The translations under genes and the position numbers were made by a program. A stretch of 64,000 nucleotides of DNA, taken from the IMG/VR virus record IMGVR_UViG_3300045988_155520, positions 192,001 to 256,000 of that record; one strand, 5' to 3'. The notes beneath the pieces are model-generated. The model was given only the letters and a program-made list of their open reading frames with translations, searched no databases and was not told the DNA's origin. Below, in pieces: positions 2,017 to 58,577 of the stretch; the stretch's first letter is position 1, and each line of letters begins with the position of its first letter. This DNA is from a virus.

Positions 2017-2727
2017 ATGAAAAACGTTAAATTATTTACAACAAAACAACTAAGAAGTGATTATGAAGACTCAAGTAACTACACAGAACCATACGTAAGT
2101 CTGGAAGAAGAGGGTAATGAAGTAAAATATAATAATATATCAATTATTAGAATTACAGTAAAAGATGGAGGAAATGCTACATTACAAGGAGGTATTACTC
2201 TTAAACCTGGAGAACATGTTATAAATATGAAACAGAATTATTCGTTACCACTTGGAATTACTAATGGAAAGGAGTACATTGAAGAAGTAGATTTATTTGA
2301 TTATAATGAGACATCTGTAGGACGTTCACTTTTTGAAGGTTTTACTAACTTAAGAAAAGTTTACCTATCTAATAAAATAACTGCTATAGAAGATTGGGCT
2401 TTCAACCGTTGTACTAACTTGGAAGAAGTTATAAATACTGAAAATATTTCCAGCATAGGACTTAACAGCTTCTCTGATTGTAGTAGTTTAGAAAAAATCA
2501 CATTCTCAGATAAAATTAACACTATTTCTCCTTATTCTTTTAAGAATAGTACCAGTTTAAAAAATATAATATTCAATTCGGATACTCCAAAAGATACATT
2601 TCTAAATATATTACAACAAATACCTACTATTCAAAGTATCTATGTTCCACAAGATGCGGTACGAACATATAAGACAGCTTCTGGATGGTCAAGTTATACT
2701 TCTATGATTAAACCAATAGAGCAATAG
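2017..2727 (+). CDS. BspA-type leucine-rich-repeat protein
   Basis: N-terminus ...YTEPYVSLEEEGNEVKYNN, then LRR units (KITAIEDWAFNRCTNLEEV, NISSIGLNSFSDCSSLEKITF, INTISPYSFKNSTSLKNIIF). Confidence 0.8.
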   Translation: MKNVKLFTTKQLRSDYEDSSNYTEPYVSLEEEGNEVKYNNISIIRITVKDGGNATLQGGITLKPGEHVINMKQNYSLPLGITNGKEYIEEVDLFDYNETSVGRSLFEGFTNLRKVYLSNKITAIEDWAFNRCTNLEEVINTENISSIGLNSFSDCSSLEKITFSDKINTISPYSFKNSTSLKNIIFNSDTPKDTFLNILQQIPTIQSIYVPQDAVRTYKTASGWSSYTSMIKPIEQ

Positions 2728-2748
2728 ATTGTAATTATACAATTTATA

Positions 2749-2786
2749 AATCGGTATTACTGCAGATTTTAGCAATAATACCGATT
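2749..2786. terminator. bidirectional hairpin between convergent genes
   Basis: AATCGGTATTA (2749-2759) pairs with TAATACCGATT (2776-2786). T-run follows on +, A-run precedes. Confidence 0.7.
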
Positions 2787-2814
2787 ATTATTTTATTAAT
2801 GAATAAATACAAAA

Positions 2815-3174
2815 TTAAACAGCTACAGCAGCCATTTCCACACCTCCAGCAGCGCCTTCAATACCACCAGCAAGACCTTCAGCACCTCCTGCCATTCCTT
2901 CCATTCCACCAGCAGAACCTTCTGAACTTCCACCTAAAGCATTTCCAGATAAGTTAGTGGAAGGAAGGTTGGAATTATTTGAAATATTTCCACCATTATT
3001 ATTCATTTTACCATCAACAGCATCTGAACCATTAGAATATCCATCTTTGAAATCTTTTATAGGATTCCATGACTTTATTTCATCTGGAACAAGTGAAGAT
3101 ACGCTACCATTTTCTTCAGTGTCTTCTTTTAAAAATCTTTTTATCTCTTCATTAACGATTTTTCTAATATTCAT
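2815..3174 (-). CDS. hypothetical protein with Gly/Ala-rich C-terminus
   Basis: 119-aa ORF. N-terminus MNIRKIVNEEIKRFLKE; C-terminus GGMEGMAGGAEGLAGGIEGAAGGVE. Last gene of a 4-gene reverse operon. Confidence 0.65.
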   Translation of the reverse strand: MNIRKIVNEEIKRFLKEDTEENGSVSSLVPDEIKSWNPIKDFKDGYSNGSDAVDGKMNNNGGNISNNSNLPSTNLSGNALGGSSEGSAGGMEGMAGGAEGLAGGIEGAAGGVEMAAVAV

Positions 3175-3177
3175 AAA

Positions 3178-3456
3178 CTATTTTTTTTCTTTATAAATAG
3201 TTTCATTTTCAAGATGGTCTATAAATTTATTAAGTTCACTTCTTAATAACTTCATTTTTTCTAAAAAATCGTATACGCTATCATCCTTACTCTTATGTAA
3301 TCTAATAGAGCCGTGGCAATCATTAACTTCGAGAAACAAATTGCGATACATATTATCTTGTGATTCAAATTCTCCATCATAACATACAACAGAACCTGTA
3401 GATGGAGAATCTTCTCTATTTAGCCACTTTCGAGTGGAATAAAATGTTTTAAACAT
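3178..3456 (-). CDS. hypothetical protein
   Basis: 92-aa ORF tightly packed between neighbours (3-nt gap, 8-nt overlap). Confidence 0.65.
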   Translation of the reverse strand: MFKTFYSTRKWLNREDSPSTGSVVCYDGEFESQDNMYRNLFLEVNDCHGSIRLHKSKDDSVYDFLEKMKLLRSELNKFIDHLENETIYKEKK

Positions 3457-3748
3457 ATTTTTCTAATTCTTTAACAAATTCAGCAGCATTTGGGCCGACA
3501 TGTTCCCATTCCTTCAAATCTTCCCAATTTCTTTTCAATTCTTCTTCGGAAGCATTATTTAAAAACTCATTCAGTTCTTTAAGTAATGAAGAGATAGACT
3601 CTTTATATTGTTCATGAATTTCATTCTCATCTGTAATAACATATGGACCTATTTCATTCAAATAGTCAAATTCTTCCATATCTTTATCTAAAATATCTTT
3701 TGGTGTATTATTGAAATATTCTTCAAGTTGTTCCACTAATTTTCCCAT
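3449..3748 (-). CDS. hypothetical acidic protein
   Basis: 99-aa ORF overlapping both neighbours, consistent with operon packing. Confidence 0.65.
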   Translation of the reverse strand: MGKLVEQLEEYFNNTPKDILDKDMEEFDYLNEIGPYVITDENEIHEQYKESISSLLKELNEFLNNASEEELKRNWEDLKEWEHVGPNAAEFVKELEKYV

Positions 3749-3974
3749 AATTATTAATATAATTCTTTAATTTCTTAATTTCATCTTTATTCCAATAATC
3801 GAAAACTAAAGATATAGCATATTCACCATTCTCTTCTTGTTTTATTCTCGGAGTTGACATACTTGAGTCTTTTAACAGAAAGTTCCCTAATAAAATTTTT
3901 TTTCCTATATTTTCTCTCTCTTTCTTAGCCTGCTCACACCAGTCATTATACATTTTTTCTACGTTCATTTCCAT
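3723..3974 (-). CDS. hypothetical protein
   Basis: 83-aa ORF, first gene downstream of the promoter at 3992-4024. Confidence 0.6.
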   Translation of the reverse strand: MEMNVEKMYNDWCEQAKKERENIGKKILLGNFLLKDSSMSTPRIKQEENGEYAISLVFDYWNKDEIKKLKNYINNYGKISGTT

Positions 3975-3991
3975 ATCTTATATTTTTTCAG

Positions 3992-4024
3992 CAAAAGTAC
4001 ACATAAAAAATTATATTACCAAAT
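3992..4024 (-). promoter_or_regulatory. Bacteroidota-type promoter for operon 3974-2815
   Basis: rc -7 CAAAAGTA (TActTTTG) at 3992-3999 and rc -33 ACCAAA at 4018-4023. Confidence 0.6.
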
Positions 4025-4050
4025 ATTTTAAATAAATTTATATATTATTA

Positions 4051-4084
4051 TTTGGTATTATGAAAAATAAACTATATCTTTGCA
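4051..4084 (+). promoter_or_regulatory. Bacteroidota-type promoter (divergent from 3992-4024)
   Basis: TTTGG at 4051-4055 and TAtcTTTG at 4075-4082. Confidence 0.6.
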
Positions 4085-4151
4085 ATAATAAAAATTCTGC
4101 TTCATTTTAATATACTATTAAAACGATGCAAAAATATTAAAATATATTCAC

Positions 4152-4310
4152 ATGACAGCAAAAGAAGAATTAATAGAAAAAATACTTGCATACGATAAAG
4201 CATTTAACGAGAAAACTAAGAACTATAAACAATTTGTTATATGCACAAATGCTGAAATAGCAAAACTGTTTAGAGAAAAATTAGAAGAAAATAATAATTC
4301 ACTAAAATAA
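4152..4310 (+). CDS. small hypothetical protein (52 aa)
   Basis: ATG 4152 to TAA 4308-4310 (MTAKEELIEKILAYDKAFNEKTKNYKQF...), ~70 nt downstream of the promoter. Below the ORF-track size cutoff. Confidence 0.45.
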   Translation: MTAKEELIEKILAYDKAFNEKTKNYKQFVICTNAEIAKLFREKLEENNNSLK

Positions 4311-4365
4311 CAAATGCTGATTAACATTATATTTATATTATATAAAAAAAATATTAATATAATGT

Positions 4366-33810: not shown

Positions 33811-33836
33811 AATAAAAAAAACAAACTAAATTATAA

Positions 33837-33844
33837 CCTATTCC
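33837..33844. repeat. 8-bp direct repeat CCTATTCC (left copy) flanking the orphan scaffold
   Basis: The identical octamer recurs at 33982-33989. Confidence 0.8.
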
Positions 33845-33981
33845 GATAGTTGTTCGTTAACAAATCCTAACAAAAACGTCAGCTTTGTTACTAATCATCT
33901 GTAAGCATTTCAACCTACAGCGGAGCTATCTTTCATCGCCCGTATTAAGATGTTACGGGCACCATTAAGGTCTCTGTGAAC
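33845..33981 (-). ncRNA. orphan omega-RNA-like scaffold: ORF-less copy of the TnpB 3' end / right end
   Basis: Hand alignment to 53652-53788 gives ~14 mismatches in ~137 nt with no gaps. Only the last 24 TnpB codons (VHRDLNGARNILIRAMKDSSAVG-stop) remain, preceded by an in-frame TGA. All four predicted stems are retained. Confidence 0.65.
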
Positions 33982-33989
33982 CCTATTCC
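33982..33989. repeat. 8-bp direct repeat CCTATTCC (right copy)
   Basis: Identical to 33837-33844. Contains the stop codon of the 31-aa ORF 33983-34078. Confidence 0.8.
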
Positions 33990-34078
33990 TTCATATTATC
34001 TATTTTATCCTTCCACTCATCGTAACTATGTGACGTTATAATCATGATTATAACTACCACCAAAATATAAATCATCAT
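33983..34078 (-). CDS. small hydrophobic peptide (31 aa)
   Basis: ATG 34078-34076 shares its A with the TGA stop of 34078-34440 (TGATG coupling). MMIYILVVVIIMIITSHSYDEWKDKIDNMKE. Below the track cutoff. Confidence 0.45.
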   Translation of the reverse strand: MMIYILVVVIIMIITSHSYDEWKDKIDNMKE

Positions 34079-50138: not shown

Positions 50139-50573
50139 TTAGTGATAATATTTTTTCAATCCTGTAAGAAGATAATGTATTGTATCAGTTATCAGGCATG
50201 TATTTCTTTGCAAATAAATATCAATATATTCATTCAGTGGCATTATGGGATACTCCATTTGCCACCTTTTAAGAAGATGCCATGTGAAGTCTGCCAATGC
50301 AAAATTTTCAGAAGATGTTTTTGAAAAAACGAAATTAACGTTTAACCATTCCAATGCTTGAAATGCTACATCAAAATATTTACTGACTTGTATCCATAAT
50401 TCTTCACTAACAAAGCAATCGACCTTACGTTTAATCTTTGCATCTCCATAATGCACGGATACAATAATTTTACCAACATCGTCTTTGATATCTGATAGTT
50501 TATATGTGAAGCGAGTTGGTAAATTTGGAACTTCTTCATGTCCTGTTATTGCAAATGTAAATTTACGTTTCAT
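50139..50573 (-). CDS. hypothetical protein
   Basis: 144-aa ORF. Its start overlaps the stop of the upstream gene by 1 nt. Confidence 0.7.
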   Translation of the reverse strand: MKRKFTFAITGHEEVPNLPTRFTYKLSDIKDDVGKIIVSVHYGDAKIKRKVDCFVSEELWIQVSKYFDVAFQALEWLNVNFVFSKTSSENFALADFTWHLLKRWQMEYPIMPLNEYIDIYLQRNTCLITDTIHYLLTGLKKYYH

Positions 50574-51370
50574 TATATTGTTTTTGCTGTTTGAATTAAA
50601 TCATATATTGCAGAAAAACTGTGTTCCAATTCTTTTTCAATTAAATACATTGAATCATCAATACTAACTGATTCCCAACACATATAATAAGACTTCTCCA
50701 AACCTACTTTTAATGCTGCTCTAAAGAAATCATAAAAAGCTGACATTTCGCTATTTTTTGTCTTGTGAAAAATTTTAAAAGACTTTGTATGTCTTTCTTT
50801 ATCGTCAGAGTCTTTCAATACATATACATAATTAACATTTACAAAATTATCTTCTGAATAAAATGAACATGTAAGAAATCTTATGGTAAAGAACTTCATA
50901 TCACTAACATTTTCATCTACCGTAATTCCAATTGTATACGGAGATAAAGTTGATGAGTCTTCGTCTTCGTCCTCTTCCATTATCTTTTCTTCTAAGATGC
51001 GTGCATATTCTTTAAAGAAAGCGGACTCAAATTCTTGTTGAATAAAATAGTGGAAAAGAAAATCTTCATCACGTTTGAAATGAGGTAATAATGCTTTAAT
51101 ATTTTTTTCAACTTCTTTAGCAACACTTTCAAAAGATGGAAGAATAATATTATAAGCCATTTCTGATTGATTTTCAAATACTTTAACTTCTTCCTTTTCT
51201 AACAAATCTTCTTGTGTATATTCATCAGCAGTCCATGTATAGCCGACTTCAATACACTTCTTAGCTGGATTCAAGAAGCACATCATTTTATTCACATACA
51301 TATCTCCAAGATAAATTCCATCTTGAAAGAGGCATGCATTGATAGGATATTTTTCATTTTTTCCTTCCAT
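50573..51370 (-). CDS. hypothetical protein, paralog of 51387-52172
   Basis: MEGKNEKYPINACLFQDGIYLGDMYVNKMMC versus MKEKEINYPTNIQVFKDGLNLGDLCLTKMNC. Confidence 0.75.
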   Translation of the reverse strand: MEGKNEKYPINACLFQDGIYLGDMYVNKMMCFLNPAKKCIEVGYTWTADEYTQEDLLEKEEVKVFENQSEMAYNIILPSFESVAKEVEKNIKALLPHFKRDEDFLFHYFIQQEFESAFFKEYARILEEKIMEEDEDEDSSTLSPYTIGITVDENVSDMKFFTIRFLTCSFYSEDNFVNVNYVYVLKDSDDKERHTKSFKIFHKTKNSEMSAFYDFFRAALKVGLEKSYYMCWESVSIDDSMYLIEKELEHSFSAIYDLIQTAKTI

Positions 51371-51386
51371 ATTATTTACAATTTAA

Positions 51387-52172
51387 TTATTTACTTAATT
51401 CTTTGAAGACTTGAATATGTGCGTAAGTAACTAAGAAACTTTTATTAAGTTCTTCTGTTATTGCGTCTTCTTCACTACAATATTGTCTAACATAATTCCA
51501 TTCATGTTTAGCATTATTTAGACCAGCAAATACAGCTAATTTAAAAATTGGATAATAGTCTATGATATCTCCAACATTATTATCTTTAAGAACTCTAAGT
51601 GTCGTTGAATATATAAAATCAGTAGAATACTCACCTGTATATTTGTATCTATATTTTACTAATAGAGTATTACTTAACGCATCAAAAAAACAACTTAAAT
51701 GAATGATTGAAATTTTTTCAAAATCCACCTTGTTATCTTCGTTAATAACATCGAGTACTATAGAATCTTCATCTATATTTTCAGTTACATTTTCTTTTTG
51801 AATGTGTGCAATAGTTTTATAGAAACACTGTTCAAAAGTTTCTTTAATTGTACATAAAGCTATGTCGACATCCATATCCACACCTTTAAGAGAAATACTT
51901 TTCATAATCATTAAGCCTTCCGCTTCTTTAACAGCATTTTCAAAAATCGCTAAAATTATTTCAAATGTATCTTCGTCTTCATCTTTTAGAATATGGAAAG
52001 TTTCAGTCCATTTGGAATTGTCATCTTTATAATTATATTTCATCTTAAGTACTATACGCTTAAGTGGGATATCAATTTTACAGTTCATTTTTGTGAGACA
52101 TAAATCCCCCAAATTTAAACCATCTTTAAACACTTGAATATTTGTTGGATAGTTTATTTCTTTTTCCTTCAT
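51387..52172 (-). CDS. hypothetical protein, paralog of 50573-51370
   Basis: See 50573-51370. Overlaps the upstream gene by 4 nt. Confidence 0.75.
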   Translation of the reverse strand: MKEKEINYPTNIQVFKDGLNLGDLCLTKMNCKIDIPLKRIVLKMKYNYKDDNSKWTETFHILKDEDEDTFEIILAIFENAVKEAEGLMIMKSISLKGVDMDVDIALCTIKETFEQCFYKTIAHIQKENVTENIDEDSIVLDVINEDNKVDFEKISIIHLSCFFDALSNTLLVKYRYKYTGEYSTDFIYSTTLRVLKDNNVGDIIDYYPIFKLAVFAGLNNAKHEWNYVRQYCSEEDAITEELNKSFLVTYAHIQVFKELSK

Positions 52173-53002
52173 AAGTTTTGATAAACTAATTTTATTTGTG
52201 AAACAATATTTTTTATATATTCTTTATTAACATTCTTTTCATCAAAGTTTTCTTCAGAAATAATAGAAGGAATTTTCTTAAATAAATCCAAAGCATAGAT
52301 TGATTTCATACCAACTGGATATCGTAAAATATAGTCATTGAATTTTTGTAAAAGAAAATTTATTTTATCTTCGTCCTCTATCCATTGTTCAGTAGTATAT
52401 TCCCATAAAGTATATGTATAAACTTCTTTGTAGATTGTATCATCTTCCGATGTAGTTGTGATACGCAATACGACCGTTCCATTATCTTCATCAATTGGCT
52501 CGTAAGTATAAGATACTTGGATAACATCTTCAGAACAATATTTCCATTTACATCTATCAACATAATATGTAAATTGTTTAACAAGACTCATTTTCTTATA
52601 AACAGATTTAAATAATTCACCCTCGTTATAGTTGGTAAGTATAAATGCTTTATAAGCCAATGCAAGTTTATCTTCAAATATTTGTTTAATTGTTTTTTCA
52701 ACAACGTTAATATCTGTTACATTTTTTAATGATTTTATGCAAACTTTTTTAGCATCATCAAGAACATAAGGAAGATAAGAAGTTGTATTATAACTATCTC
52801 CAATAGTATATTCAACAAATATCATTTCGTCTACGACTTTCACTTCTTCTCCATTAATATCACTGTATTCATAAATTAGATGATATGTGTTATATGCCAT
52901 GCTTGATTCACATTTCATTGAATGAATGGTAATGGAACCAAATTGACTTGGCTCTGTAATTAGTTGTACTACATTCGGGCTTATTCTGTTTGAAATTTCC
53001 AT
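52169..53002 (-). CDS. hypothetical protein (distant member of the same family)
   Basis: 277-aa ORF. ...QFGSITIHSMKCES... lies at the position equivalent to the N-terminal motif of the two paralogs. Confidence 0.7.
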   Translation of the reverse strand: MEISNRISPNVVQLITEPSQFGSITIHSMKCESSMAYNTYHLIYEYSDINGEEVKVVDEMIFVEYTIGDSYNTTSYLPYVLDDAKKVCIKSLKNVTDINVVEKTIKQIFEDKLALAYKAFILTNYNEGELFKSVYKKMSLVKQFTYYVDRCKWKYCSEDVIQVSYTYEPIDEDNGTVVLRITTTSEDDTIYKEVYTYTLWEYTTEQWIEDEDKINFLLQKFNDYILRYPVGMKSIYALDLFKKIPSIISEENFDEKNVNKEYIKNIVSQIKLVYQNL

Positions 53003-53016
53003 ATTCTTTTATATTA

Positions 53017-53493
53017 TTACATATCTCTTTCACTAAAATAGTTTATCATTTCATCATATAGGGCAAGTTGCATTTCCGTGCAAGGAATAGATAACAGAGT
53101 AAACTTTCGAAAAAGAAATAAATCTTCGCTAAAAGAATTACAAGATATGTCCCAATTAAAGAATATATTGACAGCAAAATGTAATAAATCTGACAAATCA
53201 TTGATGTTAATCTTAGTTTTATTACAAAGATAAAAGTTATCAATACAGTCGAGTAAAAGAGGAAGTTTATCCTCTATTTCAATCCAGAGATATAGATTCA
53301 ATTCATCAATAACTTCTTCATTGATAGTAGACATTTCATCATCTTTAGAAAATGAATCCACACGCATAACAACGTTACCATACTCTTCAATAACGTCAGA
53401 AAGTTCGATATAACAACTAATCATTTTAATATCATTATGACCATCCATTGTTACACCATAAGAAAAATTATTTATATCTTTACAATAGTCCAT
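53017..53493 (-). CDS. hypothetical protein (start moved)
   Basis: Start taken at ATG 53493 (MDYCKDINNF...). The track ORF runs to 53670 and would include its own promoter (53515-53550) and the TnpB element end. Confidence 0.65.
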   Translation of the reverse strand: MDYCKDINNFSYGVTMDGHNDIKMISCYIELSDVIEEYGNVVMRVDSFSKDDEMSTINEEVIDELNLYLWIEIEDKLPLLLDCIDNFYLCNKTKININDLSDLLHFAVNIFFNWDISCNSFSEDLFLFRKFTLLSIPCTEMQLALYDEMINYFSERDM

Positions 53494-53514
53494 ATCATGT
53501 ATATTTTTATTTGG

Positions 53515-53550
53515 TGCAAAGATAGCAAAAAATACTTTACCATACAAATA
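53515..53550 (-). promoter_or_regulatory. Bacteroidota-type promoter for operon 53493-50139
   Basis: rc -7 TGCAAAG at 53515-53521 and rc -33 TACAAA at 53544-53549. Confidence 0.7.
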
Positions 53551-53640
53551 ATAAAAGTTAAAAAAACAAAAGAGAGAAGCGACATTATTCATCACTTCTC
53601 TCTTTAATTTATAAAAAATATTTTTTGAATAACATGTTTC

Positions 53641-53651
53641 GTGAATACGCC
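53641..53651. repeat. direct repeat GTGAATACGCC flanking the TnpB element (right-end side)
   Basis: Matches GTTAATACGCC at 55151-55161 (10 of 11). Confidence 0.8.
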
Positions 53652-53800
53652 GATAGTTGTTCGTTAACAAATCCTAACAATAGTGTCAGCCTTGTTACTA
53701 ATCATCCACAGGTATCTCAACCTGCAGCGGAGCTATCTCTCATCGCCCGTATTAAGATGTTACGGGCACCATTAAGGTCTCTATGGACCTTAATTCCATC
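53652..53800 (-). ncRNA. omega-RNA (reRNA) scaffold candidate overlapping the tnpB 3' end
   Basis: Four hairpins on the reverse strand: GCCCGTA/TACGGGC (53745-53767), CTGCAGGT/ACCTGTGG, TAACAA/TTGTTA, TTGTT/AACAA. Ends at the element boundary. Confidence 0.6.
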
Positions 53801-55066
53801 ATACATAAACCACTCTTTTCCACCCAAGTTAGTCATTAACTCACCAGTAAAGCTATTGGTCTTGCTTGTGTATGACTCATTTTGTTCTACATACGCCACA
53901 CCGCACTCCTTGCACTTTTGCTTCAATCTCTCCTTAAACTCAAAGAATCGAAGGGATAGCATAGAGCGTACAATACTCTTACGTAGCTTCCTACCTTTCT
54001 TCGTCATTCCTTTTACCTCGAAAGGAGGGAATACTACGACAGAAAAATTGTGCACAAGGTAGTTTATACACTGCCAGTGCAATTCATCAACCAAGTCTTG
54101 TATTCTGTGGTACGTCCTATTAAGCGTGCGCTTCAGTTTACCTTTCTTCTTCTTATCCTTTGTTAATGCCAACCTGCTTAGCAGGTGGTCACGCTTAAGG
54201 TTAAGTGTTAGTATTCTGTCAAAGGCGTGTACACCAAGCCATCCAAATCGTCCATCTTCACTGAAGTAGGTAAGGAAATTCCTAACCCCAGGGTCTAAGG
54301 CAACAATACCACCTTGGCTTTCGGTCGGCATGGTTGTTATCTTCTGAGGTACGGAAAGATACCATCTTCCGTGGTCATAAATGAGACGACAATCACAGAT
54401 GTCATTTTTAAAAAACTCTCTTTCAGAGAACTTGAGTTTACCACTGATAGTGCGGTAAATTCCACTTGTTGACACAGCGGATTTAGGAATGTAACAACTC
54501 TGAACAGGGTTTTTACGAGTCTTATAATGCAACTTAAATGGTTTACCAGACTTCTTTGTTTTATTGCAGTTTGTCCACCATGAAGTGTAAGCGTCCTTTA
54601 CTGCAATCTTCTTTATCTGATATGGCACAGATTTAATATAGCTTTCAGTAAATTCAGCTAAGATTGTAGTACTCATTTTCATCCACCCTTTAATTTCAAT
54701 TTCTTTGCCGTTAAAGTGTTTAATGCAAGTATTGTACACCTTTCTTTCAACGCCAAACCACTGCTTAAAGAGTTGCTTTTGCTGTTGTGATGGATAAATC
54801 CTTATCCGTCTTGCCTTCGTCACTATAGTTCCTGGGTCTATGCATTCTTTATGTAAATGTATAAAGAGTTGCAAATAAGTATTCTGTGGGTTATTATTCT
54901 TAGATGTGACTTGTTTTGTAGAAAACCATGGTTTAACATTCATTGCACAGGAAGTGTTATCACATTCTGACATAGCACATTCTATGTCTTTGTGTGACAA
55001 CAAGTGTGAACTAATGCTTTTACATAAATCATCATAAAAAGTCTTATGGTCTTCCTGTACAGTCAT
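53717..55066 (-). CDS. tnpB: TnpB-like RNA-guided nuclease (IS605 OrfB family)
   Basis: RIRIYPSQQQKQLFKQWFGVERKVYN; GIVALDPGVRNFLT (RuvC-I D); VVFPPFEVKGMTKK (RuvC-II region); ESYTSKT...VHRDLNGARNILIR (RuvC-III D). Confidence 0.85.
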   Translation of the reverse strand: MTVQEDHKTFYDDLCKSISSHLLSHKDIECAMSECDNTSCAMNVKPWFSTKQVTSKNNNPQNTYLQLFIHLHKECIDPGTIVTKARRIRIYPSQQQKQLFKQWFGVERKVYNTCIKHFNGKEIEIKGWMKMSTTILAEFTESYIKSVPYQIKKIAVKDAYTSWWTNCNKTKKSGKPFKLHYKTRKNPVQSCYIPKSAVSTSGIYRTISGKLKFSEREFFKNDICDCRLIYDHGRWYLSVPQKITTMPTESQGGIVALDPGVRNFLTYFSEDGRFGWLGVHAFDRILTLNLKRDHLLSRLALTKDKKKKGKLKRTLNRTYHRIQDLVDELHWQCINYLVHNFSVVVFPPFEVKGMTKKGRKLRKSIVRSMLSLRFFEFKERLKQKCKECGVAYVEQNESYTSKTNSFTGELMTNLGGKEWFMYDGIKVHRDLNGARNILIRAMRDSSAAG

Positions 55067-55150
55067 TATTTTTTATTTCTCTATTTAAAATATAATAAAA
55101 CCATAGGCTTTATCAAGTTATTATAAAAAATTATTAGTAACTGAAGAATA

Positions 55151-55161
55151 GTTAATACGCC
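55151..55161. repeat. direct repeat GTTAATACGCC flanking the TnpB element (left-end side)
   Basis: See 53641-53651. Confidence 0.8.
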
Positions 55162-55323
55162 TCAATTTTATATATTTTTGTATTTATATATGTATATTAT
55201 AATATATTGATTATCAGATAGTTACAATATCTAAATAATTAACATTTATGATAACAGAACTTAATGAGGGCCGTGCGTTGATACGTATGTTTATTTGCTA
55301 AAATATCACATCATTTCATGTAT

Positions 55324-56991
55324 CTATCCAAATATTTCTCTAATATCCATTGGTGTAATGGTTGTAAATTCATTGAGTTTCTCGAAGTCCTTTAATGAAA
55401 CATTAGAGAAAAACCCTTTATTTTGTTTGAGAGCTATACCATGTGTTTTACACATAATCAAGTATACACATTCTTCAGGAACATCTTTCGATGGTGTAAC
55501 ATAGAAAGTCTCTTCTATTGGAAGCTGAGTTAGTAGCCCAAATTTTTCAGAAATAACAAACATTCCATCTTCATCTTGAATTAAGTATAAGGTTTGTTCA
55601 CCTTCTCCTATCTTGCTAATGATGTCTGCCCAATATATATAAATTTCACATGTATCTGTATTTATTACAGAAATTTGATTATCTTTAAAACAAACCAACC
55701 TACCATATTGGTATACACATTTATCCACAGACTCATCAAACATGACCTTATTAGTTTTTTTATCTATTACTTGTTTATCTCCATCATCATCAGTCAGTAT
55801 AAGAATATTTTGATAGTTATCTAATTCCCTAATAGAAATCTCTTTTAACTTTTCCAAGGTCTTTGCGTTATAAATTCCGCCACCATCTTCTTCTTCATCA
55901 GTATTGGCGACAAATAAAAGACCATTATTTTCAATTGTGTCTATCCATTCATCACCGAAAGCTGCCTCGTGAATTAAACCATTCCTATCAATTAGAGCAC
56001 AAATTTCATATCCTTCATCAGTTTCACCTTGATAGACAACATAGTTTTTACTGTTGAAACAAACATTATCGTTAAAGTTGTAACCATAAATGTACAAATT
56101 GCCAGTTGTTTTATTCTGACACAATTTAAAACCATAATTCAAATTATCATCCAAAACTTCCACACCTTCAGGAATTAAACTCTGAATATCATCTGGATTA
56201 AATATACTATATATATCAGTTCCAATTAATTTAGAAAGTTGTTCTGGAGTCATTACAGAGTCGTTACCTCCGTTGTCATGATTCCATCTACAGGTTACTG
56301 TATTTACAGAACCATCATGTCTAAAAGATAGGGCAATCATCGAAAGTCCATATTCATCCAATGGACAATTTGGGCCTACCTTTCTTGGAACATTTTCAAA
56401 ACCTTCTTTTAATAAGAAATAAAACAAACCCTTACCTATACCGACATAATTAATGAAATCCTGTGAACGGTGAGTTACACACCATGTGGTGTAATCGCTA
56501 TATTCAGATGCCTCTGAAAACGATGGGATTGGAACAATTGTATAGCCATTATTATGTCCATTACTCTGTCCATAATGTGCGGTATTTTCTCTATTAGCCT
56601 TATCCGCTTGATGAACATAGCCTTCAAAATTTCTAAAAAACTCATCCAATGGCATACCATTAAGATTCTGGTCAAGATTTAGTTCCTTAGATTTGGCTGC
56701 TGCAACACTAATAAATTTGTTAAGTTTTAATAATGTGTCAGCATTTATTGATTTAGGATTCTGTAATAAAAATCTTACAACCGCTGGAAACAAATGAAAG
56801 TTTTCTTTACGTACACTTGGTATGTCATGCAATACTTTCTCTGTAAACTCTTTATCATTTGTATTTGGGGATAGTTCTCTAACCATTTTTCTTGCAAGGG
56901 ATTGGTTCTTTGAAGCACGGTTCTCAGTAATTAAACGACTTCTTTTAAATAAACTTGCGAACTGGTTTTTGTCTATAATAATTCTTCTCAT
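55324..56991 (-). CDS. hypothetical protein sharing a ~110-aa domain with 57564-58577
   Basis: GPNCPLDEYGLSMIALSFRHDGSVNTVTCRWNHDNGGNDSVMTPEQLSKLIGTDIYSIF versus GDNAPLDEYGLSMIAVSFRKDGEINSVTSRWGHKNDGNDNIMSSKQLSHLIGTDIYSV. Confidence 0.8.
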   Translation of the reverse strand: MRRIIIDKNQFASLFKRSRLITENRASKNQSLARKMVRELSPNTNDKEFTEKVLHDIPSVRKENFHLFPAVVRFLLQNPKSINADTLLKLNKFISVAAAKSKELNLDQNLNGMPLDEFFRNFEGYVHQADKANRENTAHYGQSNGHNNGYTIVPIPSFSEASEYSDYTTWCVTHRSQDFINYVGIGKGLFYFLLKEGFENVPRKVGPNCPLDEYGLSMIALSFRHDGSVNTVTCRWNHDNGGNDSVMTPEQLSKLIGTDIYSIFNPDDIQSLIPEGVEVLDDNLNYGFKLCQNKTTGNLYIYGYNFNDNVCFNSKNYVVYQGETDEGYEICALIDRNGLIHEAAFGDEWIDTIENNGLLFVANTDEEEDGGGIYNAKTLEKLKEISIRELDNYQNILILTDDDGDKQVIDKKTNKVMFDESVDKCVYQYGRLVCFKDNQISVINTDTCEIYIYWADIISKIGEGEQTLYLIQDEDGMFVISEKFGLLTQLPIEETFYVTPSKDVPEECVYLIMCKTHGIALKQNKGFFSNVSLKDFEKLNEFTTITPMDIREIFG

Positions 56992-57050
56992 TATTTTAAT
57001 ATTAATATATAAAAATAAATATTAAATTTAACATTAAAAGCAAAAAAAAA

Positions 57051-57076
57051 ACTTGACAGAAATACATCTATCAAGT
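57051..57076 (-). terminator. hairpin + T10
   Basis: ACTTGACAG pairs with CTATCAAGT (one mismatch). The A10 at 57041-57050 is a T-tract on the reverse strand. Confidence 0.7.
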
Positions 57077-57102
57077 TATGTGATTTTAACAACTTTCTTA
57101 GT

Positions 57103-57489
57103 TTAATTAGAGGTTGCTCTCTTCATTCTGCAACTCAAAGTGCCTAAATAGTTATGCATGGCTTGAAGTTGTTCATTCAATAGGTTCCTATCAGTTTCTT
57201 CTAAAGAAGCAAATGAATCTGAATCTATGAATTTTTCCAATTTTTCAATACGTTCATCCAATTCATCCAGTTCTAATTTCATTCTATCAATGAATGAATC
57301 AGCTAATGCGAAGTTCTCTTCAAAAAATGATTTTGGAGTCCAAGTAAGCTCACCATAATGATTTTCCACTAAATAACCATCCATTTCTTCATCACAATCC
57401 ATGTTGAATGGAAGTACGCCATCGGGTACATCTTTTAATTTCATAGGCTCAGCCATACAACAAGTTGTCTTTGATAAATATTTCTTCAT
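57103..57489 (-). CDS. hypothetical protein with C-terminal coiled-coil; paralog of 59537-59866
   Basis: KKYLSKTTCCMAEPMKLKD...LDERIEKLEKFIDSDSF versus KKVSQTTYCMDEAMKSND...INERLEKLEKFIDPDSL. Confidence 0.75.
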   Translation of the reverse strand: MKKYLSKTTCCMAEPMKLKDVPDGVLPFNMDCDEEMDGYLVENHYGELTWTPKSFFEENFALADSFIDRMKLELDELDERIEKLEKFIDSDSFASLEETDRNLLNEQLQAMHNYLGTLSCRMKRATSN

Positions 57490-57510
57490 AACATATATTT
57501 TTTAATACTC

Positions 57511-57545
57511 TGCAAAGATATAGAAAAAATATAATATCTCAAAAT
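57511..57545 (-). promoter_or_regulatory. Bacteroidota-type promoter
   Basis: rc -7 TGCAAAG at 57511-57517 and rc -33 CTCAAAA at 57538-57544. Confidence 0.65.
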
Positions 57546-57563
57546 TTCAATATATAAAATATG

Positions 57564-58577
57564 TTAAAAATCTATTATTGATTCATGACCTAATTCTTTT
57601 CCTGTTTTCGCATCAAATTTAACTATGACTCTTCCAAGTTCGATATAAAGAACGTTATCTTTAATATAAGCATTTCGTATAGTTCTTGATTGAGAAACAA
57701 AGGATAAACCATTTATAGTTGCACATACATCGTAAGAATTATCAGTATGTAAAACTATAACATCTTTACCTGCGAAGTATTTTTTAACCGAATTACTTTT
57801 ATCTGTTACCAAATAATCATTTGCTTGCTTATCATAGACCAATTTAAAACCGTCTTTTAAGTTCTTTACCAACTTCAAACTATCTGTATGTTGTTCGTTA
57901 TCTCTTAAATCGTGTTTAATCTCTCTGGTTAAGTCTATTACTACATCTCTACCAAAATCAAATTGTTTATTCAATACTATTGCATCACGTCCATGAAAAT
58001 ATTCTACATCTTCTAAGAATTTATCAGTTACCAAATAATCATTCTTAGATTTATCATAGAATAGCATTAATCTATCTGCTATTTTCTTAATATATCTCCA
58101 ATCTTTAGGATAAGAAATATTGTTATACACGGTGTTTTTTGTTACAGAGTATATATCAGTACCTATAAGGTGAGAAAGCTGCTTAGAAGACATTATATTG
58201 TCATTTCCGTCATTCTTATGACCCCACCTGCTTGTAACACTATTAATTTCACCATCTTTTCTAAATGACACTGCTATCATTGATAAACCGTATTCATCCA
58301 ATGGTGCGTTATCTCCCTCCTCTTCTGGTATTGAAGCAAATTCTTTCTTTAATATAAAATAGAAATAACCACCATTACGTATAAATTTCAGGAATGTATT
58401 TTTATCTTTGGTAAAGTTCCAATTTGCATAATTAGAATATGTATTTGCTTCCTCAAACGTTCTTATCAAAGCAAGCATGTGACCGTTAAATTCACCATAA
58501 GGACCTCTTTCTTCATTCATAATCTTCAGAACTATATTCTTAAATTGTTGCTCATTAATACGTACTAATCTTCTCAT
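57564..58577 (-). CDS. hypothetical protein sharing a domain with 55324-56991
   Basis: See 55324-56991. The N-termini are also alike (MRRLVRINEQQFKNIV versus MRRIIIDKNQFASLF). Confidence 0.8.
   Translation of the reverse strand: MRRLVRINEQQFKNIVLKIMNEERGPYGEFNGHMLALIRTFEEANTYSNYANWNFTKDKNTFLKFIRNGGYFYFILKKEFASIPEEEGDNAPLDEYGLSMIAVSFRKDGEINSVTSRWGHKNDGNDNIMSSKQLSHLIGTDIYSVTKNTVYNNISYPKDWRYIKKIADRLMLFYDKSKNDYLVTDKFLEDVEYFHGRDAIVLNKQFDFGRDVVIDLTREIKHDLRDNEQHTDSLKLVKNLKDGFKLVYDKQANDYLVTDKSNSVKKYFAGKDVIVLHTDNSYDVCATINGLSFVSQSRTIRNAYIKDNVLYIELGRVIVKFDAKTGKELGHESIIDF

Follow-up and report, generated by a model that had tools for sequence, protein, structure and literature searches.

The 64,000-nucleotide stretch analyzed here (the window), positions 192,001 to 256,000 of the IMG/VR virus record IMGVR_UViG_3300045988_155520, derives from a phage of about 250 kb (250.7-kb contig) in a human oral metagenome and holds, at 53650..55159, a 1,510-bp mobile element built around one tnpB gene. 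We consider it probable, at roughly 85%, that this is a non-autonomous IS607-family element of an oral phage, encoding a Fanzor-like TnpB with a D258/E397/D430 triad that would use a guide RNA, spread by homing and rely on the transposase TnpA acting in trans. What looked like an anomaly in a preliminary description of the window, a solo TnpB with a target duplication, becomes a dissected IS607 derivative that can be followed through occupied, empty, autonomous and orphan states, and its odd features (the long repeat, the missing transposase, the "displaced" glutamate and the N-terminal extension) all have ordinary explanations. The element and all of its parts described below lie on the minus strand.

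The borders of the insert were read from contigs of related phages (numbered L005 to L152). Two 11-mers had been noted around the gene, a left one at 55151..55161 (GGCGTATTAAC; GTTAATACGCC on the window strand) and a right one at 53641..53651 (GGCGTATTCAC; GTGAATACGCC), which agree at 10 of 11 positions; such a pair is not significant by itself, with at least two matches at one mismatch in 24 of 100 shuffles. At least 12 related phage contigs with orthologous flanking genes have an empty site with a single copy of the 11-mer (...TTGAGGCGTATTCACGAA...; ...AAAATTGAGGCGTATTCACGAAGC...; ...ATATAAAATTGAGGCGTATTCACGAAGC...), and they cease to match the window at 55151/55154 and 53650/53651. Where the occupied allele reads TTGA-GG-[...]-ATC-GG-CGTATT, the empty one reads TTGA-GG-CGTATT (...TTGAGG/CGTATTCACGAA... 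in L011-L022, L029, and L044-L049). Because the empty sites carry one copy, the 1,510-bp unit is an insert with the 11-mer at its borders, as first supposed, and the population check that the preliminary description had named as able to refute it came out in its favor. The exact limits of the insert hold if the left GG (55160-55161) is counted as target sequence, and the junction is ambiguous within GGCGTATT.

Other copies of the element define its two ends. The right end (RE) has a sharp border over 31 distinct insertions (...GTTAACGAACAACTATCG or ...CAACTATCG(G)), followed by G in 22 of them (P = 1e-13) and otherwise by T or C. The left end (LE; 55067..55159, tip CGTA-TTAACTATTCTTCAGTTACTAATA) begins in the aligned copies as RA/GG-N3-4-TTAACTRTTCTTCAGTTACTAATA, with GG at 13 of 15 tips; immediately 5' of it, all 13 sites have A at position -1 (P = 1.3e-6) and a purine at -2 (P = 7e-5). 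In the window this corresponds to GAGG at 55160..55163, where the site statistics point to a GG crossover core preceded by an RA preference, resembling a target-adjacent motif (TAM). IS607 elements cross over at a GG present in LE, RE and target and make no duplication (PMC10711439). The earlier remark that the CC (GG) ends of the repeat recall IS607 is thus borne out, both by these GG junctions and by the IS607 TnpA of autonomous relatives.

The preliminary description had reported no partner transposase. This holds for the window, in which tblastn with IS607 TnpA retrieved no intact IS607 TnpA gene (Y1 TnpA was not searched for), but not for the history of the element: a dead 3' half of tnpA (TnpA residues ~108 to 202) lies at 54768..55043 in an alternative frame (42% identity by tblastn), and related phages hold autonomous copies with both tnpA and tnpB. 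Two of the latter, L006 and L124, are ~1,830 bp long and encode, right after the same LE, a 202-amino-acid (aa) MerR-HTH/resolvase protein that matches the NCBIfam equivalog transpos_IS607 (183 bits; cutoff, 110). In the window copy and all of the ~15 solo copies, tnpA codons 2 to ~104 are gone and the tnpA ATG is joined to tnpB codon ~83. The remnant has multiple stop codons in all 14 solo copies analyzed, and its frame shows a ratio of nonsynonymous to synonymous substitution rates (dN/dS) of 1.29. On this sequence evidence, the window element is a non-autonomous derivative of an IS607 element. Solo and autonomous copies were found together on single contigs; therefore, TnpA could act in trans.

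The two genes overlap widely in the autonomous copies. In L006, the longest tnpB open reading frame (ORF; 530 aa, 2764-4356) starts 64 nucleotides (nt) after the tnpA start (2700-3308), and in both L006 and L124 it overlaps nearly all of tnpA in another frame. Of 152 distant relatives, 61 are likewise longer at the N terminus, by 55 residues or more; this additional sequence is poorly conserved and of low complexity, and it could reflect a real long overlap or an artifact of ORF calling. We rejected the extra ~75 residues of the 520- to 550-aa relatives as a domain on the same grounds; they are probably read-through of tnpA in the alternative frame. Some related phages also carry a second, distant IS607-like serine recombinase with 33 to 34% identity to the L006 TnpA (L005, 6278-6835; L030, 8680-9255; L014, 2028-2396; L060, 3301-3669), suggesting another IS607 lineage or a different serine recombinase.

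The tnpB coding sequence (53717..55066) encodes 449 aa. The TnpB motifs quoted from it in the preliminary description are present, and profile families confirm the assignment: residues 87 to 440 match NCBIfam NF040570 (guided_TnpB; 136.7 bits; cutoff, 100), and the Pfam domains HTH_OrfB_IS605 and Cas12f1-like_TNB are recognized as well. The gene is under strong purifying selection, with dN/dS of 0.11 overall and 0.08 in the core, and a long open frame is kept in all 21 copies examined (444 to 454 aa in the 19 without tnpA).

To locate the catalytic residues, we counted conservation in 152 relatives with 30 to 59% identity and compared the protein with solved structures. TnpB reads D258-P259-G260 in RuvC-I (D258 at 54293-54295) and E397-SYTSKT-N404 further downstream (E397 at 53876-53878), followed by D430 (53777-53779). 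D258, G260 and D430 are invariant or found in 151 of the 152 relatives, E397 is found in 151, and Pro259 in 145. The column of the canonical RuvC-II glutamate holds proline in TnpB (P347, 54026-54028) and in 149 relatives. The preliminary description was thus right that PPFE is present and that the canonical Glu is gone, but not that the Glu is displaced by about three residues: E350 of PPFE (54017-54019), kept in only 66 relatives, was rejected as the catalytic residue and is classed as non-catalytic.

The profile and structure comparisons that had been proposed ranked Fanzor2 first. The closest solved structure is the Fanzor2 of Acanthamoeba polyphaga mimivirus (ApmFz2; PDB 9b0l), with a phmmer E value of 1.6e-20; the family profile reaches it at 2.3e-69, compared with 2.3e-27 for ISFba1 TnpB and 5.6e-19 for ISDra2 TnpB. 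It is also the top Foldseek match of the TnpB model (1.7e-16), although template-modeling scores of ~0.3 make that search usable for ranking only, and identity in the structural alignment is ~19%. D258, E397 and D430 align with Asp324, Glu467 and Asp501 of ApmFz2, a triad set experimentally (PMC11832414), and P347 aligns with its Gly416. In Fanzors, the canonical Glu position is taken by Pro or Gly. The definition of Fanzors and of the "pro-Fanzor" IS607 TnpBs by Yoon et al. (2023; PMC10711439) requires DPG in RuvC-I and, six residues ahead of the first CxxC, an alternative Glu (Ealt). Because of these alignments of the triad and of P347, the active site is assigned to this known relocated-Glu arrangement, in which the predicted catalytic Glu is E397, 50 residues downstream. 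Inactivation of the kind seen in TldR was rejected, as D258, E397 and D430 are conserved.

The absence of cysteines in the zinc-finger region, noted at the outset, is real and clade-wide. No Cys occurs between E397 and D430, and in the zinc-finger-equivalent segment (residues 404 to 428; 53783..53857) N404 and T407 stand in place of the first CxxC. The same span has no Cys in 78 of the 152 relatives, and 60 keep four or five. The Cys-less form is limited to a closer subclade from phages or uncultured sources, and cyanobacterial relatives at 26 to 32% identity retain CxxC...CxxC. The literature mentions in general terms that some TnpB branches have lost the zinc finger and that rearranged branches specific to viruses exist (PMC10691335).

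The preliminary description also pointed to a Cys/His-rich N-terminal extension. The ~85 residues exist and are conserved, whereas their Cys and His residues are not, and a metal site was rejected on that account. The extension (residues 1 to 85; 54812..55066) overlies the tnpA remnant, M1 being the former tnpA initiator ATG. It is conserved in about 65 to 72% of relatives (P9, F/Y10, W11, S19, L22, P25 and S46-W47-F48) and evolves under purifying selection in the tnpB frame (dN/dS, 0.28). The family profile extends to ApmFz2 residue 76 and aligns SWF with S82-W-Y84 in RuvC-R, where the confidence of the AlphaFold2 (AF2) model is low. From the profile alignment, the extension would be the counterpart of the Fanzor2 N-terminal domain.

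At the RE, the element encodes a guide RNA scaffold (omegaRNA, or right-end element RNA [reRNA]) of ~144 nt with five helices (53650..53793), which overlaps the final 25 tnpB codons, ends at the fixed right-flanking G (53650) and closes with the helix GAUAG/CUAUC, for which it uses the RE terminus. Across 27 distinct copies, 98.9% of cells in its 43 pairs are paired, with compensatory changes in 7 pairs and 34 cells; none of 500 shuffles scored as high, and slid controls reached at most 46% paired. In IS607, the G after the RE is likewise fixed and part of the scaffold of a ~150-nt reRNA (PMC10711439). By analogy with IS607 TnpB biology, the guide would be the adjoining phage DNA at 53630..53649 (CGTATTCACGAAACATGTTA), which holds the first non-conserved bases past the RE in all copies. 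The empty alleles carry GAGG, then 12 identical nt and then polymorphisms; for comparison, the published TAM is GGG for both ISXfa1 (PMC10711439) and ApmFz2 (PMC11832414). Viral contigs searched for exact matches to the guide flank yielded none.

A second copy of the RNA module, without the rest of the element, lies at 33843..33995. This orphan RE fragment of ~150 nt comprises the complete omegaRNA module and matches the last ~25 tnpB codons and ~65 nt downstream, with 33823-33842 (AATAGGTTATAATTTAGTTT) as its would-be guide. The right boundary of the element does coincide with the end of homology to the orphan, as first observed, the match between the two copies breaking off exactly at ...CAACTATCGG. 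L129 shares this orphan; in L149 to L152 it is absent, and ~38 nt of a different sequence precede the same flank. We therefore rejected a simple GG insertion, given both these orphan-less alleles and the 5' edge of the orphan, which falls within a GGAAT(A/T)A microhomology. Further orphans occur in L054 (140 nt) and, at one site, in L137 and L122 (145 versus 316 nt). From their sequences, the orphans look like deletion remnants that have kept the RNA module by chance or selection. At the position of the orphan, the intergenic DNA of L149 (~3140-3170), L150 (~2945-2975), L151 and L152 holds a ~25-nt motif, TTATACCG(A/C)AAGGTAATCACAAC, twice within 100 nt in L152, which may be a phage regulatory repeat.

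It could be argued that such orphans are second guides kept on purpose, and that the phage has domesticated TnpB, for example for use against its competitors or in regulation, the whole forming a multi-guide module rather than a selfish element. The strong purifying selection on tnpB would fit this idea, as would the orphans at three or more loci that keep about 120 to 150 nt, approximately the whole RNA module, one of them inherited across phages. Moreover, the family is restricted to phage contigs, with no member above 48% identity in a scan of 185,579 species genomes. We nevertheless regard domestication as quite unlikely. That the element is still mobile is indicated by its intact transposon ends, its ~31 insertion sites and its autonomous relatives; the catalytic triad is complete and thus not TldR-like; orphans of unequal length at one site are what progressive decay would leave; neither the guide of the element nor that of the orphan has a second match in the window at up to two mismatches; and the orphan-less alleles lack RAGG and differ in the seed.

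Alternatively, the 11-bp repeat could be a genuine target-site duplication, produced by some unknown mechanism of a TnpB-only element with staggered cuts 8 to 11 bp apart. In favor of this, the empty site has one copy of the 11-mer and the occupied site two, equal at 10 of 11 positions, and the match between the LE tip and its own flank beyond GG (8 of 9) exceeds all 204 non-own pairings, with a further high value (7 of 9) in L108. A census of 15 independent LE/RE junction pairs led us to reject this explanation, which we consider very unlikely: 13 insertions are at chance level beyond GG, and the mean match is 4.7 of 9 for own flanks versus 4.3 of 9 for non-own flanks, the window and L108 being the exceptions. 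In addition, TTAAC belongs, like most of the tip, to the conserved sequence of the element, inherited as seen in the nearest relative (L146, GGCTA/TTAAC; window, GGCGTA/TTAAC), and the transposase of the family is an IS607 serine recombinase, which makes no duplications. Described as unexplained in the preliminary description, the repeat consists, as far as these junctions indicate, of the IS607 GG core and of target sequence similar to the inherited LE tip (GG-N3-4-TTAAC); the left 11-mer would be GG core and LE tip, and the right one the last RE base, the right-flanking G and the first 9 nt of guide or target. A target preference for LE-like sequence is possible.

Finally, the element might be a decaying relic whose TnpB is inactive for want of the canonical Glu and zinc finger, as the Pro substitution, the Cys-free zinc-ribbon segment and the destroyed tnpA could suggest, but this is the least credible alternative given the core dN/dS, the open frame in 21 of 21 copies, the D-Ealt-D residues conserved across 152 relatives and the catalytic activity of ApmFz2 with the same Pro/Gly-for-Glu arrangement. 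Given the conserved triad, the overall dN/dS and a guide RNA conserved with covariation, the idea of a reduced or repurposed nuclease put forward in the preliminary description was not upheld.

The reading as a non-autonomous IS607-family element is itself opposed by several observations. No autonomous copy was found within the 64-kb window. The T or C after the RE in 9 of 31 copies and the two LE tips without GG fit a clean GG crossover poorly. The 8-of-9 match between LE tip and target in the window lies above all non-own pairings, so that something beyond chance may act. The AF2 model, built on a 34-sequence alignment, has a predicted local distance difference test score below 50 at residues 1 to 83 and 396 to 449, and it is too poor at both termini for placing E397 or judging the Cys-less fold.

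Taken as a non-autonomous IS607-family element, the window copy suggests the following history. In the ancestor, LE would have been followed by tnpA (a serine recombinase) and a tnpB overlapping it, with the guide RNA encoded in the RE. A deletion of ~310 bp would have removed tnpA codons 2 to ~104, joining the tnpA promoter and ATG to tnpB codon ~83, and the deletion derivative would then have spread to many sites in related phage genomes. Insertion would proceed by serine-recombinase crossover at the GG within ...TTGA-GG-CGTATTCAC..., which leaves GG at both junctions without any real duplication of the target; the remainder of the 11-bp repeat would come from a target like the LE tip (GG-C(G)TA-TTAAC), by chance or target preference. 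The TnpB would be a "pro-Fanzor/TnpB2" RuvC nuclease with DPG, Ealt, Pro for the canonical Glu, a Fanzor2-like N-terminal domain and a Cys-less zinc-ribbon segment. Together with its ~144-nt omegaRNA (guide flank CGTATTCACG...), it would cut RAGG-adjacent empty alleles of co-infecting sibling phages, and recombination would copy the element in (homing). Moves to new sites would need TnpA in trans from autonomous copies, with ...ATCGG/CGTATTAAC... as the predicted circle junction.

The LE contains a predicted, family-conserved sigma-70-like promoter (TTGATA-16-TATATT, 55116->55089), and its GTTACTAAT (55133-55141) is an inverted repeat of the invariant ATTAGTAAC in the RE (53694-53702). AACTAT also occurs near both tips and, with this inverted repeat, makes a pair of candidate TnpA-binding motifs; the RE copy of the repeat falls within the guide RNA scaffold. 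Among the empty-site alleles, L013 and L017 read TTGAAGCGTATTCACGAAGC, with AG for the GG core, and others vary at guide positions 8 to 15; either ordinary drift or target-site escape from TnpB or TnpA could account for this. L069 and L097 have an identical LE flank (...TTTTCCAGAAGGGTCA/TTAAC) and unrelated RE flanks (CACTACGTTT... versus GAATGGAAAA...), suggesting recombination between copies or an RE-adjacent deletion.

Among known systems, the element shares with IS607 (ISXfa1 and H. pylori IS607) a MerR-HTH serine-recombinase TnpA in autonomous relatives with tnpB downstream, GG at both junctions with a single GG in the empty site and a fixed right-flanking G, a guide RNA of ~150 nt encoded in the RE, a G-rich TAM-like left flank, and insertion without target-site duplication, the similarity beyond GG being at chance level in 13 of 15 insertions and the window an outlier explained by its LE-tip-like target. 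It differs in that the window copy lacks tnpA codons 2 to ~104 and has tnpB running from the tnpA start, in its location in jumbo-phage genomes, and in the tnpA/tnpB overlap of the family, which is ~290 nt or more. Like pro-Fanzor/TnpB2 (PMC10711439), the TnpB has DPG, Pro at the canonical Glu position, a Glu six residues before the first zinc-finger position and an association with IS607. In contrast to pro-Fanzors, all four of its zinc-finger Cys are gone, so that the published defining regular expression fails, and it resides in phages from a habitat that is not cyanobacterial, although the 2023 description limited pro-Fanzors to cyanobacteria.

Fanzor2, represented by ApmFz2 (9B0L), is the best match in sequence, profile and fold, with the triad aligned, a putative N-terminal counterpart of its SW[FY] motif in RuvC-R and a predicted TAM that ends, like its own, in GG; unlike this phage protein, ApmFz2 is borne by a eukaryotic virus and has a nuclear localization signal, an intact zinc finger and a longer omegaRNA. 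ISDra2 TnpB (IS200/IS605) is similar in its overall TnpB architecture and in the logic of an RE-encoded guide and homing, but it has the canonical Glu, a hydrophobic residue in D-phi-G, a zinc finger, a Y1 transposase and a TTGAT TAM, and no N-terminal domain; the partner in our autonomous relatives is a serine recombinase, not the Y1 (HUH) TnpA of IS200/IS605. TldRs are likewise TnpB derived and have no transposase partner, but they lack the RuvC catalytic residues and are immobile, whereas the element described here combines a conserved triad with transposon ends and numerous insertion sites. Unlike an IStron, the element has no group I intron or RAGATH-18 match in Rfam (window at gathering threshold; 53580-53880 at E <= 10).

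Current models stand, with none overturned by the window element or the Cys-less subclade. The novelty is modest and lies in this subclade of the DPG/Ealt lineage, which is large, restricted to phages, devoid of the zinc-finger Cys and strongly selected, beyond the published pro-Fanzor definition and host range. It is a natural case in which to ask whether TnpB and Fanzor can dispense with the zinc ribbon, and if the N-terminal alignment holds, the "unique" N-terminal domain of Fanzor2 would predate eukaryotic viruses. Its members are also candidate compact nucleases whose guide RNA is defined and whose TAM is likely RAGG. It is tempting to speculate, though we think it unlikely, that the Cys-less phage clade is a zinc-independent Fanzor-like lineage that jumbo phages employ, along with both full-length and orphan guide RNA modules, for multi-guide homing and exclusion against sibling phages, and a viral link from cyanobacterial pro-Fanzors to giant-virus Fanzor2 in which the Fanzor2 N-terminal domain was already present.

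The TnpB family comprises 572 clusters (50% identity) at E <= 1e-30. Metagenomic contigs, the largest ~330 kb long, hold more than 100 proteins with 80 to 86% identity to TnpB, and a single contig often has several of them. Among cultured phages, those of Vibrio, Microcoleus and Aeromonas carry the closest relatives (24 to 32% identity), and the nearest cellular ones are the cyanobacterial pro-Fanzors (26 to 32% identity); in the species-genome scan, cellular relatives above 32% identity occurred only on small contigs of metagenome-assembled genomes. Megablast of window positions 51000-58000 against GenBank phages gave no match, no Rfam family was found in the window at gathering threshold or in 53580-53880 at E <= 10, and no tRNA was found.

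The element is flanked by tandem paralogous gene sets at 50573-53002, with three paralogues of 261 to 277 aa, and at 55324-58577 on the minus strand, where a 555-aa and a 337-aa protein have a common conserved block (...APLDEYGLSMIA.SFR.DG...). Further copies of these flanking genes occur in related phages L023 to L030 (41% identity), and a Sequestin-domain gene lies at 57103-57489. A hairpin of 16 bp with a T-run behind it lies at 53569-53605 on the minus strand, ~45 nt downstream of the RE, and takes in the ATG of the next gene (191-aa ORF, start at 53592). As it is also found at empty sites (e.g., L029), the hairpin belongs to the phage and lies outside the element; it could end guide RNA transcripts or control the downstream gene.

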